Below, piece after piece: positions 23,445 through 31,438 of a stretch of 64,000 nt of DNA (the stretch's first letter is position 1; every line of letters starts with the position of its first letter). The stretch spans positions 20,154 to 84,153 of the forward strand of contig JANRJF010000255.1 of the NCBI GenBank assembly GCA_033764095.1, written 5' to 3'. Below the pieces are notes generated by a model. The model searched no databases, had not been told where the DNA came from, and worked only from the letters and a program-made list of their open reading frames with translations. The stretch comes from Deltaproteobacteria bacterium. Its GTDB lineage: Bacteria > Desulfobacterota > Binatia > HRBIN30 > CADEER01. The position numbers were made by a program, and so were the translations under genes.

Positions 23445-23744
23445 ATGGCCGCACCGACCAGCGATCGCGTCGCCTGGCTGGAGGGCGTGCTGCGCGCGGG
23501 CTTCTCGCCCGAACACCTCAGCGTCGAGGACGAGAGCCATCTGCACCGCGGGCATGCCGGCGCCGCCGGCGGCGGCGGACACTTCCGCGTCTGCATCGTC
23601 GCCGCCGCCTTCCGCGGCCAGAATCAGGTGGCGCGCCAGCGCGCCGTCTACGCCCTGCTCGGCGACGCGATGCGCAGCACCATCCACGCCCTCGCGCTGC
23701 GCACGCTGACGCCGGAGGAGTGGGCGGCCTCGCCGCGCGGCTGA
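23445..23744 (+). CDS. bolA: BolA family protein
   Basis: SHLHRGHAG...HFRVCIVAAAFRG...RQRAVY. 99 aa. Confidence 0.8.
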   Translation: MAAPTSDRVAWLEGVLRAGFSPEHLSVEDESHLHRGHAGAAGGGGHFRVCIVAAAFRGQNQVARQRAVYALLGDAMRSTIHALALRTLTPEEWAASPRG

Positions 23745-24568
23745 TGCCCGTCGACGGCTGGGTTGCGCACGGCGACCTCCGCCTGCACTACCTCGACTGG
23801 GGCCCCCCGGGGCGGCCGCCGGTGGTGTTGTTGCACGGCGGCTCGGCGCACGCGCACTGGTGGGACTTCACCCTCCCCTATCTCGCCGACCGCTACCGCT
23901 GCATCGCGCTCGACCTGCGCGGCCACGGCGACAGCGGCCGGCCGGCCGACGGCGACTACAGCCTCGCCGCGCACGCCGCTGACGCGCTGGCACTGTTCGA
24001 TGCGCTCGACCTGCACCGCCCGGCCCTGATCGGTCATTCGTTCGGCGGCTTCGTCGCAATGGTGCTGGCCGGCCAGGCCCCCGATCGCCTTGCCGCGCTG
24101 GCGCTGGTCGACAGCCGCGCCCGCATCGGCGTACGCAGCGCCCGCTTGCTGGAGGCGCTGCGCAAGCTGCCACATCCCCGCTGGGCCACTCGCGAGGAGG
24201 CAATCACCCGCTTTCGCCTGCTGCCCGCCGACACCACCGCCGCCCCCGAGGTGCTGGCGCAGGTCGCCGAACACGGCCTGGCGCTGGATACGAACGGCAC
24301 CTGGTCGCTCAAGTTCGATCGCCGCGCCCTCGCCGGCGCCGGCGCGCAGGATCTGGCGCCGCACCTCACCGCGCTGCGCTGCCCGGTGCTGGCGGTGCGC
24401 GCCGCGTCGAGCGCCATCGTCGGCCCAGAAGCGATGGCCGAGTACCGGACCGCCGTGCCGCACGTCGAGTTGGCGGAGATCGCCGATGCCCACCACCACG
24501 TCATGCTCGATCAGCCGCAGGCGTTGGCGCGCGTGCTGGGCGATTTCCTCGACCGCACCTTCCGCTGA
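23744..24568 (+). CDS. alpha/beta hydrolase
   Basis: ATG overlaps the bolA stop (TGATG). HGGSAHAHWW, nucleophile elbow GHSFGG. 274 aa. Confidence 0.8.
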   Translation: MPVDGWVAHGDLRLHYLDWGPPGRPPVVLLHGGSAHAHWWDFTLPYLADRYRCIALDLRGHGDSGRPADGDYSLAAHAADALALFDALDLHRPALIGHSFGGFVAMVLAGQAPDRLAALALVDSRARIGVRSARLLEALRKLPHPRWATREEAITRFRLLPADTTAAPEVLAQVAEHGLALDTNGTWSLKFDRRALAGAGAQDLAPHLTALRCPVLAVRAASSAIVGPEAMAEYRTAVPHVELAEIADAHHHVMLDQPQALARVLGDFLDRTFR

Positions 24569-24613
24569 CGAGCCGCGGCCGGCCTACCAACGCCCTGCGC
24601 CATGCGCTAGTCC

Positions 24614-25396
24614 TTGCCGCGCATGGCGCATCGCAGCGACGTGATCGAGGTGCGCGGCGTGCGCACCCGTCTCCTGAAGGGCGGTCGCGGCCAGCCGCTG
24701 CTCGTCCTGCACCCGGAATTCGGCGCCGGATTGTGGGCGCCGTATCATGATGCGTTGGCGGCGCGCTTCCACGTGCTGGCGCCCGATCATCCCGGCTTCG
24801 GCGGCAGCGAGCGGCCGAATTGGCTCGACCACATCGACGACCTGGTCTTCCACTACATCGACCTGCTCGATCAGCTCGGCATCGAGCGCGCGGCGATCGC
24901 CGGGTGCTCGCTCGGAGGATGGATCGCGGCGGCGTTCGCCATCGCCCACCCGGAACGCGTCGAACGCCTGGTGCTCGCGGCGCCGGCCGGGGTGAAGGTC
25001 GACGGCGTGCCGCGCTACGACTATTTCGCCAACCCGATCGAGGACGTGCTGACCCACCTCTTCCACGATCCGGCGCGCGCCGCGCAGATCCTGCCGGAGG
25101 AGTACGGCGCCGAGGTGGTGGTGCGCGGCTACCACGAGCTGACCACGCTGGCGCGGCTGTCGTGGAATCCGTACCTCTACGACCCGAAGCTGCAGCAACG
25201 CCTGCCGCGCGTCCGCACACCGACCCTGCTGCTGTGGGGGGCCGAGGACGCCGTCCTGCCGCCGCCGCACGCCGACGCCTGGGCGGCGCTGCTGCCCTAC
25301 GCGACGCTGCGCCTGCTCACCGCCTGCGGTCATCTGGCACCATTCGAGCAGGCCGACGCCTGCGCGCGCCACACCATCGAGTTCCTCAGCGCCTGA
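24614..25396 (+). CDS. alpha/beta hydrolase
   Basis: LVLHPEFGAG, nucleophile elbow GCSLGG. 260 aa. Confidence 0.8.
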   Translation: MPRMAHRSDVIEVRGVRTRLLKGGRGQPLLVLHPEFGAGLWAPYHDALAARFHVLAPDHPGFGGSERPNWLDHIDDLVFHYIDLLDQLGIERAAIAGCSLGGWIAAAFAIAHPERVERLVLAAPAGVKVDGVPRYDYFANPIEDVLTHLFHDPARAAQILPEEYGAEVVVRGYHELTTLARLSWNPYLYDPKLQQRLPRVRTPTLLLWGAEDAVLPPPHADAWAALLPYATLRLLTACGHLAPFEQADACARHTIEFLSA

Positions 25397-29439: not shown

Positions 29440-29447
29440 GTCCGCCG

Positions 29448-30941
29448 ATGCGGCGCGTGCTCATCGCCAACCGCGGCGAGATCGGCGTGCGCATCGCGCG
29501 CGCCTGCCGCGAAGCCGGCCTGTCGCCGGTCGCGGTCTACTCCGAGGCCGACGCGAACGCCGCGCACGTGCGGGCTGCCGACGCCGCCGTCTGCGTCGGG
29601 CCGCCGCCGAGTCGCGACAGCTACCTGAAGATCGACGCGCTGCTCGACGCCGCGCGCCGGCTCGGCGCCGACGCCGTGCATCCGGGCTATGGCTTCCTGG
29701 CCGAGAGCGCCGAGTTCGCCGGCGCCGTCACCTCCGCCGGGCTGACCTTCGTCGGGCCGCCGGTCGAGGCGATCGCGGTGATGGGCGACAAGACGCGCGC
29801 CCGCAGCACCGTCGCCGCCGCCGGCGTGCCGGTGGTTCCGGCGATCGAGGACCTGCCCGCCGATGCCGCGGATGCACAACGCGCCGCCGACGGGCTCGGC
29901 TATCCACTGCTGATCAAGGCGGCGGCCGGCGGTGGCGGCAAGGGGATGCGCGTCGTGCGCGCCAGCGGCGACTTCGCCGCCGCGCGCGAGGCGGCGGCGC
30001 GTGAAGCGCTGTCGGCGTTCGGCGACGGGCGGATCTTCCTCGAGCGCTACTTCGAGCGCGCTCGCCACGTCGAGGTGCAGGTGCTCGCCGACGCGCACGG
30101 GACGACGCTGCACCTCGGCGAGCGCGAGTGCTCGATCCAGCGCCGGCACCAGAAGATCGTCGAGGAGACGCCGTCGCCGGGGGTGAGCGGGACGCTGCGC
30201 GAGCGGCTGACCATGGCCGCGGTCGCGGCGGCGCGCAGCGTCGGCTACGTAAGCGCCGGCACGGTCGAGTTCCTGGTCACCGACGCCGGCGACTTCTACT
30301 TCCTGGAGATGAACACGCGCCTGCAGGTCGAGCACCCGATCACCGAGTGGGTGAGCGGCGTCGACCTGGTACACGCGCAATTGCGCATCGCCGCCGGTGA
30401 GCGCCTGACCTGGACCCAGGCCGACCTGCTGCCGCGCGGCCACGCTATCGAGTGCCGCGTCTACGCCGAGGATCCGGCGCAGCACTTCCTCCCCAGCCCA
30501 GGTCGCATCCTGTTCCTGCGCGAGCCCCAGGGGCCGGGGTTGCGGGTCGACTCGGGCATCAGCGCGGGCGGCGAGGTGACGGTGCACTACGACCCGATGC
30601 TGGCCAAGCTGTCGGCGTGGGGCGCGACGCGCGACGCGGCCCGGCTGCGCCTCATCGAGGGGTTGCGCGACTACGCGGTGCTCGGCGTGACCACCAACAT
30701 CGCCTTCCTGGTCGACGTGCTCGCGCACCCGGCATTCGCCGCCGGCGCAACGCATACGCACTTCATCGACGAGCATCTGCGCGCGTGGCAGCCGGCCGCG
30801 CCGGACGCCGAGCTGGCGGCGCTCGCCGCCGCGCTGCACGGCGTGCTGGCGCCGGCGGCGGCCAGTGGCGGCGGAACGCGCGAGCGTGCCGCCTCCCCGT
30901 GGCAGACGCTCGGCGCTTGGCGGCTGGGCGGAGCGGGCTGA
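29448..30941 (+). CDS. biotin carboxylase (acyl-CoA carboxylase alpha subunit, BC domain only)
   Basis: MRRVLIANRGEIGVRIARAC, ATP-grasp motifs, EMNTRLQVEHPITE. Ends before any biotinyl domain. Confidence 0.85.
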   Translation: MRRVLIANRGEIGVRIARACREAGLSPVAVYSEADANAAHVRAADAAVCVGPPPSRDSYLKIDALLDAARRLGADAVHPGYGFLAESAEFAGAVTSAGLTFVGPPVEAIAVMGDKTRARSTVAAAGVPVVPAIEDLPADAADAQRAADGLGYPLLIKAAAGGGGKGMRVVRASGDFAAAREAAAREALSAFGDGRIFLERYFERARHVEVQVLADAHGTTLHLGERECSIQRRHQKIVEETPSPGVSGTLRERLTMAAVAAARSVGYVSAGTVEFLVTDAGDFYFLEMNTRLQVEHPITEWVSGVDLVHAQLRIAAGERLTWTQADLLPRGHAIECRVYAEDPAQHFLPSPGRILFLREPQGPGLRVDSGISAGGEVTVHYDPMLAKLSAWGATRDAARLRLIEGLRDYAVLGVTTNIAFLVDVLAHPAFAAGATHTHFIDEHLRAWQPAAPDAELAALAAALHGVLAPAAASGGGTRERAASPWQTLGAWRLGGAG

Positions 30942-31438
30942 TGCACAGCACCTATCAGCTCGGCGCCCGCCACCTGCACGTCGGCCTGCGGCGCGAGGGC
31001 GCCGGGCGCTTCGAGGCCACGACCGACAGCGGCGTACAGCAGGTCGACGCGGCGCTGGTCGACGGGCACACCGTCCAGCTGTGCATCGGCGACGCGGTGC
31101 ATGTCGCACACGTCGTGCGGGTCGGCGCGGTGGCGCACGTCTGGCTCGCCGGACGCGCCTATGTGCTGGAGCCCGAACGCGCCACGAGCAGCAGCCATGC
31201 GGTGCTGGCGCCGCCGCAGATCGTCGCGCCGATGCCGGGCAAGGTGCTGGAGGTGCTGGTCAGCCCCGGCCAGCAGGTCGCGGAGGGCGACGGGCTGGTG
31301 ATCCTCGAGGCGATGAAGATGGAGCACCGCATCACCGCCGCCGCCGCCGCGACCGTGCGCGCGGTGCATGCCAGCGGCGGGCAGATGGTCGACGGCGGCG
31401 CGGTGTTGATCGAGCTGGAGTACGCCGGCGACGACTGA
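30941..31438 (+). CDS. biotin carboxyl carrier protein (stand-alone biotinyl/lipoyl domain)
   Basis: ATG overlaps the BC stop (TGATG). C-terminal EAMKMEH biotin-attachment motif. 165 aa. Confidence 0.75.
   Translation: MHSTYQLGARHLHVGLRREGAGRFEATTDSGVQQVDAALVDGHTVQLCIGDAVHVAHVVRVGAVAHVWLAGRAYVLEPERATSSSHAVLAPPQIVAPMPGKVLEVLVSPGQQVAEGDGLVILEAMKMEHRITAAAAATVRAVHASGGQMVDGGAVLIELEYAGDD

Follow-up and report, generated by a model that had tools for sequence, protein, structure and literature searches.

We analysed a 64,000-nucleotide stretch (64 kb; hereafter the window) of contig JANRJF010000255.1, and within it a row of head-to-tail genes encoding a BolA-family protein, two alpha/beta hydrolases (hyd1 and hyd2), a luciferase-like (LLM) oxidoreductase, a flavin adenine dinucleotide (FAD) flavoprotein and the subunits of a 3-methylcrotonyl-CoA carboxylase (MCC). 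An earlier sequence-only reading had taken these genes for one translationally coupled eight-gene operon that might define a catabolic route for a branched or terpenoid-like substrate. Comparison with related loci suggests that the row is probably a mosaic, its modules independent of one another and packed end to end in one Binatia lineage, and not a single pathway operon. The first module would be a bona fide MCC made of three polypeptides, namely the carboxyltransferase (CT), a piece carrying biotin carboxylase (BC) and the first part of the BT domain, and a piece carrying the rest of BT and the biotin carboxyl carrier protein (BCCP) domain. The second would be hyd2 together with the LLM gene, a two-gene unit kept across many phyla, to which the flavoprotein of family PF12831 would be an accessory add-on and third module. 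A putative lipoprotein, BolA and hyd1 would form a fourth, separate sub-block, with an RNase Z-like gene and a PPOX-class gene as further neighbours. The LLM protein is 100% identical to one from a ‘Deltaproteobacteria bacterium’ metagenome-assembled genome (MAG), and its close relatives are labelled Candidatus Binatia.

The gene row and its order in related loci

Coding frames were assigned from a frame plot of G+C at third codon positions (GC3) and from translations, and junctions were read straight from the sequence; machine-made lists of open reading frames (ORFs) are rich in spurious frames here because G+C content around the row is ~73%. Coding on the + strand is unbroken from ~21300 to 31438, and the co-directional array comprises 11 genes (21302-31438):

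21302..22321, + strand: RNase Z-like metallo-beta-lactamase (MBL) protein, first gene of the array (394 bits to NCBIfam NF002558, ribonuclease Z subfamily, cut-off 315; Pfam Lactamase_B_2)
22325..22768, + strand: PPOX-class oxidoreductase of F420-dependent type (TIGR03668, Rv0121 family, 133.5 bits, cut-off 119)
22795..23442, + strand: putative lipoprotein (N-terminus ...LLAGSLNSGC, lipobox-like; no Pfam or NCBIfam match)
23445..23744, + strand: BolA-family protein (Pfam BolA, 100 bits)
23744..24568, + strand: alpha/beta hydrolase 1, hyd1 (Abhydrolase_1, 116 bits; nucleophile motif GHSFGG)
24623..25396, + strand: alpha/beta hydrolase 2, hyd2 (Abhydrolase_1, 90 bits; nucleophile motif GCSLGG)
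25396..26565, + strand: LLM flavin- or F420-dependent oxidoreductase (Bac_luciferase, 174 bits)
26562..27821, + strand: FAD_oxidored flavoprotein (PF12831, 277 bits)
27832..29439, + strand: predicted MCC beta subunit, the CT, 535 aa with a GTG start (Carboxyl_trans, PDB scores)
29448..30941, + strand: predicted N-terminal piece of MCC alpha, BC plus the first part of BT, 497 aa (Biotin_carb_N, CPSase_L_D2, Biotin_carb_C)
30941..31438, + strand: predicted C-terminal piece of MCC alpha, the remaining BT plus BCCP, 165 aa (Biotin_lipoyl, 61 bits; biotinylation motif EAMKME)

The 5′ edge that had been drawn at bolA was therefore arbitrary: three + strand genes precede it with gaps of 3, 26 and 2 nt, the first lying between the RNase Z-like stop and the PPOX start and the last between the lipoprotein stop and the bolA start. 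All of the domain calls made earlier were correct when checked against Pfam and NCBIfam (BolA, two Abhydrolase_1, Bac_luciferase, FAD_oxidored, Carboxyl_trans, the biotin carboxylase domains and Biotin_lipoyl), and the four reported overlaps are present in the sequence, as TGATG at bolA/hyd1 (23742-23746), hyd2/LLM (25394-25398) and BC/BCCP (30939-30943) and as ATGA at LLM/FAD (26562-26565). At the remaining junctions the gap is 54 nt from hyd1 to hyd2 (45 nt with a TTG start at 24614), 10 nt from the flavoprotein gene to CT and 8 nt from CT to BC. Median intergenic distance is 2.5 nt in the array versus 19 nt in the rest of the window, and junctions overlap in 4/10 cases versus 5/31. Given such tight packing, the row is probably co-transcribed, at least in part. 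A promoter and terminator scan of 19-33 kb returned no signal exceeding shuffled expectation and none within the row, whilst an Rfam search of the window found no riboswitch or leader, a tRNA being the sole match. Functionally unrelated genes elsewhere in the window also share 4-nt start/stop overlaps, namely asd/leuB (54260-54263) and FGase/dienelactone hydrolase (33101-33104), and overlap alone is therefore no proof of shared function; in this genome such overlaps are common whatever the genes encode.

For gene order we collected 80 genome loci anchored on LLM homologues and 10 further metagenome or genome contexts, 90 loci in all (cited below by number), and searched all 11 proteins against them. 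The same 11 genes in the same order were recovered from a single locus (L005, LLM 83% identical). Seventeen loci, the window counted, are of Binatia type (LLM identity at least 68%). Contiguous hyd2-LLM-FAD-CT-BC-BCCP is present in 4 of these 17; L013 keeps the order with a 0.8-kb spacer, and the FAD gene is missing from L007, L086 and L087, where LLM is followed directly by CT. In three of the 17, LLM and CT share a neighbourhood but stand apart: a dynamin-like GTPase and an outer-membrane protein separate them in L001, CT lies ~6 kb downstream of LLM in L010 (the intervening genes are not annotated), and LLM, FAD and MCC genes are spread over 17 kb in L089. A further four or five (L008, L012, L014, L090 and the short L009) carry hyd2-LLM with or without FAD and have no MCC nearby.

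The upstream half of the row behaves as a separate block. The lipoprotein-BolA-hyd1 order is retained in L005, L007, L085, L086 and L087, and the PPOX gene is not present in L006, L007 and L086. In L085 a 4.7-kb insertion of opposite-strand genes and a LysR regulator splits lipoprotein-BolA-hyd1 from hyd2-LLM-FAD-CT-BC-BCCP, at the site of the 54-nt hyd1/hyd2 gap of the window. Moreover, where the row is well kept its unrelated flanks are kept equally: L085, L086 and L087 retain panBCD, dNK and smpB on one side and the fmt-like gene, FGase, dienelactone hydrolase, IclR and electron-transfer flavoprotein (ETF) genes on the other. Adjacency here therefore reflects shared ancestry and not selection for a pathway; with its breaks, losses and dispersal across loci, the order of the row is not conserved beyond background synteny. 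The claim of one dedicated eight-gene catabolic operon thus survives weakly: its tight packing and likely partial co-transcription stand, but the row falls into modules in relatives. A new branched or terpenoid route built from the eight genes as one unit is not supported, in view of the hyd1/hyd2 break in L085, the FAD losses and the scattered orthologues.

Some features of these loci deserve mention in their own right. The dynamin-like GTPase recurs by the hydrolase-LLM block, on the downstream side of LLM in L001 (11187-12884) and upstream of hyd1 in L090 (2913-4595). Genes for the large (552 aa) and B12-binding small (133 aa) subunits of an acyl-CoA mutase lie directly upstream of the split-alpha MCC of L089 (11899-17263); the enzyme may be an isovaleryl/pivalyl- or isobutyryl-CoA mutase that supplies the catabolism of branched acyl-CoAs.

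A predicted three-polypeptide 3-methylcrotonyl-CoA carboxylase

The CT scored highest in a PDB sequence search against experimentally defined MCC beta subunits, with 792 bits to Mycobacterium tuberculosis AccD1 (PDB 4Q0G), 752 bits to Pseudomonas aeruginosa MCC-beta (PaMCC-beta; PDB 3U9R/3U9S) and 741 bits to human MCCB, compared with 463 bits to the beta subunit of geranyl-CoA carboxylase (GCC; PaGCC-beta, PDB 5IKL). A place in the propionyl-CoA or acetyl-CoA carboxylase (PCC/ACC) clade, which the sequence-only reading had named as the outcome that would count against it, is not what we find, PCC-beta scoring 282 bits or less. Jurado et al. (2015; PMC4673880) give three rules for telling these enzymes apart: MCC-beta has an N-terminal helix not found in PCC-beta, a Phe (‘Phe191’ in PaMCC-beta) where GCC-beta has Gly, and a three-residue insertion, relative to GCC, ahead of that Phe. 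The CT has the extended helix (~30 residues, absent from PCC-beta), since its alignments begin at residues 1-4 with MCC-beta chains versus residues 20-27 with PCC-beta. Its alignment to PaMCC-beta runs from residue 4 over 532 residues at 63% identity with 0 gaps, and the MCC-specific insertion is therefore present.

The diagnostic Phe could not be mapped by residue number, as native position 191 is a Gly of the conserved SCTAGGAY motif in both CT and PaMCC-beta, and therefore every N-domain Phe was compared instead. All N-domain Phe residues of PaMCC-beta are kept except F168, which is Tyr in the CT, a change also seen in M. tuberculosis AccD1; none is Gly. From numbering offsets, Phe163 in DREHFGRIF is likely the equivalent of the published ‘Phe191’. 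A 15-residue segment is identical to its AccD1 counterpart. Clade placement thus comes from scores and diagnostic residues and not from a tree, and by these measures the CT is a clear MCC orthologue, not of GCC or PCC/ACC type. It had been described as akin to MCC or GCC beta subunits; the former half of that description stands and the latter does not, and the substrate-specificity residues whose inspection had been advised are MCC-type.

It might still be supposed that the carboxylase is a geranyl-CoA-type or other gamma-carboxylating enzyme for acyclic terpenoid breakdown, its split alpha subunit marking a new specificity. MCC and GCC (AtuC/AtuF) belong to a common gamma-carboxylating lineage with the same domain set, architecture and mechanism, and GCC also takes 3-methylcrotonyl-CoA (PMC4673880); the gene context here is non-canonical and the alpha subunit atypical. 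Against this stand the wide gap between the MCC-beta and GCC-beta scores, the lack of any indel relative to PaMCC-beta, the Phe residues kept where GCC has Gly, the segment shared with AccD1 and the lack of atu-like genes nearby, which together make such a specificity very improbable. The enzyme is closest to P. aeruginosa LiuB/LiuD and M. tuberculosis AccD1/AccA1 in beta-subunit length (535 aa), N-terminal helix and Phe residues but, unlike the Liu proteins, is not encoded inside a liu cluster.

The step catalysed by MCC is usually part of leucine/isovalerate catabolism. The window contains no liuA, liuC or liuE equivalent and no Acyl-CoA_dh or ECH family match among its called genes, and its sole HMGL-like match is LeuA, a biosynthetic enzyme. 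The combination of MCC with dehydrogenase, hydratase and lyase genes that makes a liu cluster is thus not found, nor is an atu cluster, the CT being MCC-type and its neighbours not atu-like. The earlier statement that the layout is not the canonical liu or atu one is borne out. Downstream of the row, at a distance of 3-7 kb, are genes for ETF alpha/beta and for an EtfD-like Fe-S protein. Together with panBCD, smpB, nagZ and the fmt-like gene they make up a housekeeping remainder of the window, which further includes leuA, leuB, ilvC, ilvN, asd, recN, uppS, cdsA and frr.

The alpha subunit is in two ORFs and not, as in a typical MCC alpha, on one ~650-aa polypeptide with BC, BT and BCCP. The 497-aa ORF is colinear with residues 9-498 of PaMCC-alpha (LiuD), and residues 84-160 of the 165-aa ORF align to PaMCC-alpha 577-651, AMKM biotinylation site included. 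Judged by these alignments, BC, BT and BCCP are colinear with LiuD and the two ORFs are one MCC alpha, cut at ~residue 498 within the BT domain. Since the window comes from a MAG, one could suspect a frameshift artefact or a pseudogene and a true gene encoding a fused MCC alpha. Frame breaks do occur in related loci, where assembly indels or pseudogenes have left the CT of L006 in two frames (12499-14114) and many genes of L087 broken (3902-14964). However, the same cut point recurs in six other loci from independent samples (L005, L006, L013, L085, L086 and L089), as separate ORFs in different frames, with differing junction sequences and with spacings from -1 to ~28 nt. Every small ORF begins with a start codon of its own. 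Moreover, stand-alone homologues of the small ORF form more than 120 clusters; the best 120, reaching down to 48% identity, consist solely of such separate proteins, 163-182 aa long, and PF21139 (BT_MCC_alpha) with Biotin_lipoyl is present in many of them. We therefore give an artefact almost no credence, and on these comparisons the split alpha represents a known enzyme in a variant form shared across the lineage.

Archaeal ACC/PCC have BC and BCCP on separate subunits, whereas in MCC alpha the two are usually fused (PMC3199775). The three-subunit acetyl/propionyl-CoA carboxylase of Sulfolobales is the nearest parallel, with BC of ~500 aa, BCCP of ~165 aa and CT of ~530 aa (PMC3199775). It differs in that the CT of the window is in the MCC clade and not the alpha-carboxylating ACC/PCC clade, in the MCC-type BT (PF21139) of the small-subunit homologues and in the bacterial host. 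In the three-polypeptide enzyme the BC piece would carboxylate the biotin carried by the small BCCP protein, from which the CT would pass the carboxyl group on to 3-methylcrotonyl-CoA, at its gamma carbon. The BT domain normally anchors MCC alpha to beta, in holoenzymes of 750 kDa. Here the two alpha polypeptides would have to reassemble on the beta hexamer.

The hyd2-LLM pair, the flavoprotein and the case for one pathway

A hyd2 homologue adjoins LLM on the same strand in 56/84 loci, immediately upstream in 48 and immediately downstream in 8, and all-against-all clustering of neighbouring ORFs places hyd2 in 60/84. The next commonest families among these 84 loci are short-chain dehydrogenases/reductases (SDR, 14), major facilitator superfamily (MFS) transporters (11) and amidases (10); CT is found in 8, all of Binatia type. 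Below ~62% LLM identity the hydrolase alone stays with LLM, and outside the Binatia-type loci the pair never has a carboxylase nearby. The module spans at least eight phyla. The MAGs that carry it bear the labels Binatia, Methylomirabilota/Rokubacteria, Chloroflexota, Acidimicrobiia, Acidobacteriota, Alicyclobacillus and Gemmataceae; among cultured organisms it occurs in the actinomycetes Trebonia kvetii and Actinomadura sp. NBRC 104412.

All 23/23 NCBIfam matches of the LLM protein fall under their cut-offs (best TIGR03858, 101 bits versus 462), placing it outside the named subfamilies RutA, SsuD, LadA-like, F420-dependent Mer/Fgd and TIGR03858, and its best PDB relative, 7bip, scores only 104 bits. 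By these searches it is without a characterised close relative. Both hydrolases have intact GxSxG motifs. For hyd1 the best named relatives (PcaD, haloalkane dehalogenase) are all far under cut-offs, and for hyd2 the PcaD, HsaD and AcoC-like matches, at 105-118 bits, are all under cut-offs too. Most likely, the oxygenase would form a product open to hydrolysis, such as an ester or lactone, and the serine hydrolase would then cleave it. LLM-type Baeyer-Villiger oxygenases exist (PMC12239570), and type II (LLM) enzymes such as the diketocamphane monooxygenases and the progesterone LLM of C. tardaugens offer a comparison, in that here also an oxygenase gene is coupled to a serine alpha/beta hydrolase. 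They differ in that sequence-level membership is lacking (the best PDB score being that of 7bip) and no flavin reductase gene is adjacent. As regards the oxygenase plus esterase/lactonase pairs of ketone catabolism, an SDR lies upstream here in some phyla. Such SDR-hydrolase-LLM triads, with the SDR directly upstream of the pair, number 14 loci, mostly Methylomirabilota (e.g. L039 1785-2612), and would fit a logic of alcohol to ketone to ester to acid. An isochorismatase upstream in L002 prompted an analogy with the Rut pathway (RutA LLM, RutD hydrolase, RutB isochorismatase), which we discarded, since the LLM matches do not include the RutA model and RutD scores 77 and 57 bits versus a cut-off of 238.

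The flavoprotein has relatives of at least 70% identity in over 100 clusters, but no PDB relative was found by sequence. An AlphaFold (AF2) model (predicted local distance difference test, pLDDT, 76.8; predicted template-modelling score, pTM, 0.81) matched a generic two-domain FAD fold in Foldseek, the top hit being geranylgeranyl-reductase-like (TM 0.49, 15% identity), followed by sarcosine oxidases and class A monooxygenases. No functional assignment was gained from a fold this generic, and a literature search on PF12831 found no papers. The gene stands alone in L089 and, in L090, follows hyd1-hyd2-LLM and precedes two acyl-CoA dehydrogenases. It is an accessory, dispensable gene, found in some relatives only.

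Several observations weigh against the mosaic. LLM, with or without FAD, is followed by CT within tens of nt in eight loci (73-100% LLM identity), and FAD orthologues lie beside a CT in L088 and near one in L089; some functional tie is therefore possible. The window also has no gene for isovaleryl-CoA dehydrogenase, methylglutaconyl-CoA hydratase or 3-hydroxy-3-methylglutaryl-CoA (HMG-CoA) lyase, so that the MCC module itself is only presumably, by orthology, an enzyme of the leucine pathway.

The same adjacencies can be read as a single operon, hyd2-LLM(-FAD)-MCC, for the breakdown of a branched-chain ketone, ester or isoprenoid-like compound. LLM would be the oxygenase, either of Baeyer-Villiger type or hydroxylating, and the hydrolase would free a branched C5-type acid, which, CoA-activated and desaturated, would yield 3-methylcrotonyl-CoA for carboxylation by MCC. 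The ATGA overlap and the 10- and 8-nt gaps down to BC agree with such an operon, as do the persistence of LLM-CT adjacency despite FAD gain and loss, the L085 insertion having landed upstream of hyd2 and not within the block, and the FAD-CT adjacency in L088. The known Baeyer-Villiger LLM enzymes and the SDR triads lend it chemical sense, and the best fold match of the flavoprotein is geranylgeranyl-reductase-like, albeit at the generic level given above. Yet genes for a CoA ligase or transferase, an acyl-CoA dehydrogenase, a hydratase and a lyase are all missing from the row, and the linkage is limited to close relatives with equally syntenic, unrelated flanks, dissolving in L001, L010, L089, L090, L008, L012 and L014. 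The hyd2-LLM pair of other phyla is never beside a carboxylase. In L090 the hyd1-hyd2-LLM-FAD block has steroid-type acyl-CoA dehydrogenases (9501-11916) in place of MCC. Isovaleryl-CoA dehydrogenases in this position would have linked the block to leucine catabolism; that identity was rejected, as they are a ChsE4/ChsE5-like alpha2beta2 pair.

Taken together, these data make a dedicated hyd2-LLM(-FAD)-MCC pathway unlikely, and a real functional link of hyd2-LLM(-FAD) to MCC is doubtful. We regard as improbable the more specific proposal that in this Binatia lineage hyd2-LLM and the PF12831 flavoprotein were recruited upstream of a split-alpha MCC as a real operon, yielding a branched C5 acid for 3-methylcrotonyl-CoA carboxylation by oxidative cleavage of a branched ketone, an ester or a compound derived from isoprenoids. 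A Binatota genome survey (PMC8262859) makes no mention of this cluster, MCC or leucine.

Other features of the window and implications

Elsewhere in the window, positions 1-8000 have 56-60% G+C versus 69-74% at 8-32 kb and may represent an acquired island for lipids or signal molecules, carrying:

47-2020, + strand: 657-aa ORF without a family
2103-3245, - strand: fatty-acid desaturase
3196-4515, - strand: beta-ketoacyl synthase
5061-5675, + strand: FeeM-like N-acyl amino acid synthase
5679-7772, + strand: 7TM-GAF histidine kinase

On the - strand at 43283-46968, a cohesin-domain protein (308 aa) is encoded beside a 900-aa PD40-repeat protein with a C-terminal type I dockerin; to our knowledge this lineage is not known for cellulosomes, yet the window has a cohesin-dockerin pair. 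Just downstream of the EtfD-like Fe-S gene, also on the - strand (38924-41373), sit two tandem 397-aa paralogues, 31% identical (E 2e-46), with conserved Cys and no Pfam family.

If hyd2-LLM and the flavoprotein were after all recruited to the MCC as an operon, this would represent a new route feeding the lower part of the leucine pathway and the first functional handle on the LLM-hydrolase module. In any case, the hydrolase-LLM pair is a widespread two-gene module without a characterised member and a reasonable target for enzyme discovery. If, as we think probable, the row is a mosaic, its lesson is mostly one of caution: compact high-GC genomes join unrelated genes by overlaps and short gaps, and therefore overlaps alone are not evidence of a pathway. 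Moreover, a three-polypeptide MCC whose alpha subunit is cut in the BT domain would then be a natural experiment on holoenzyme assembly.

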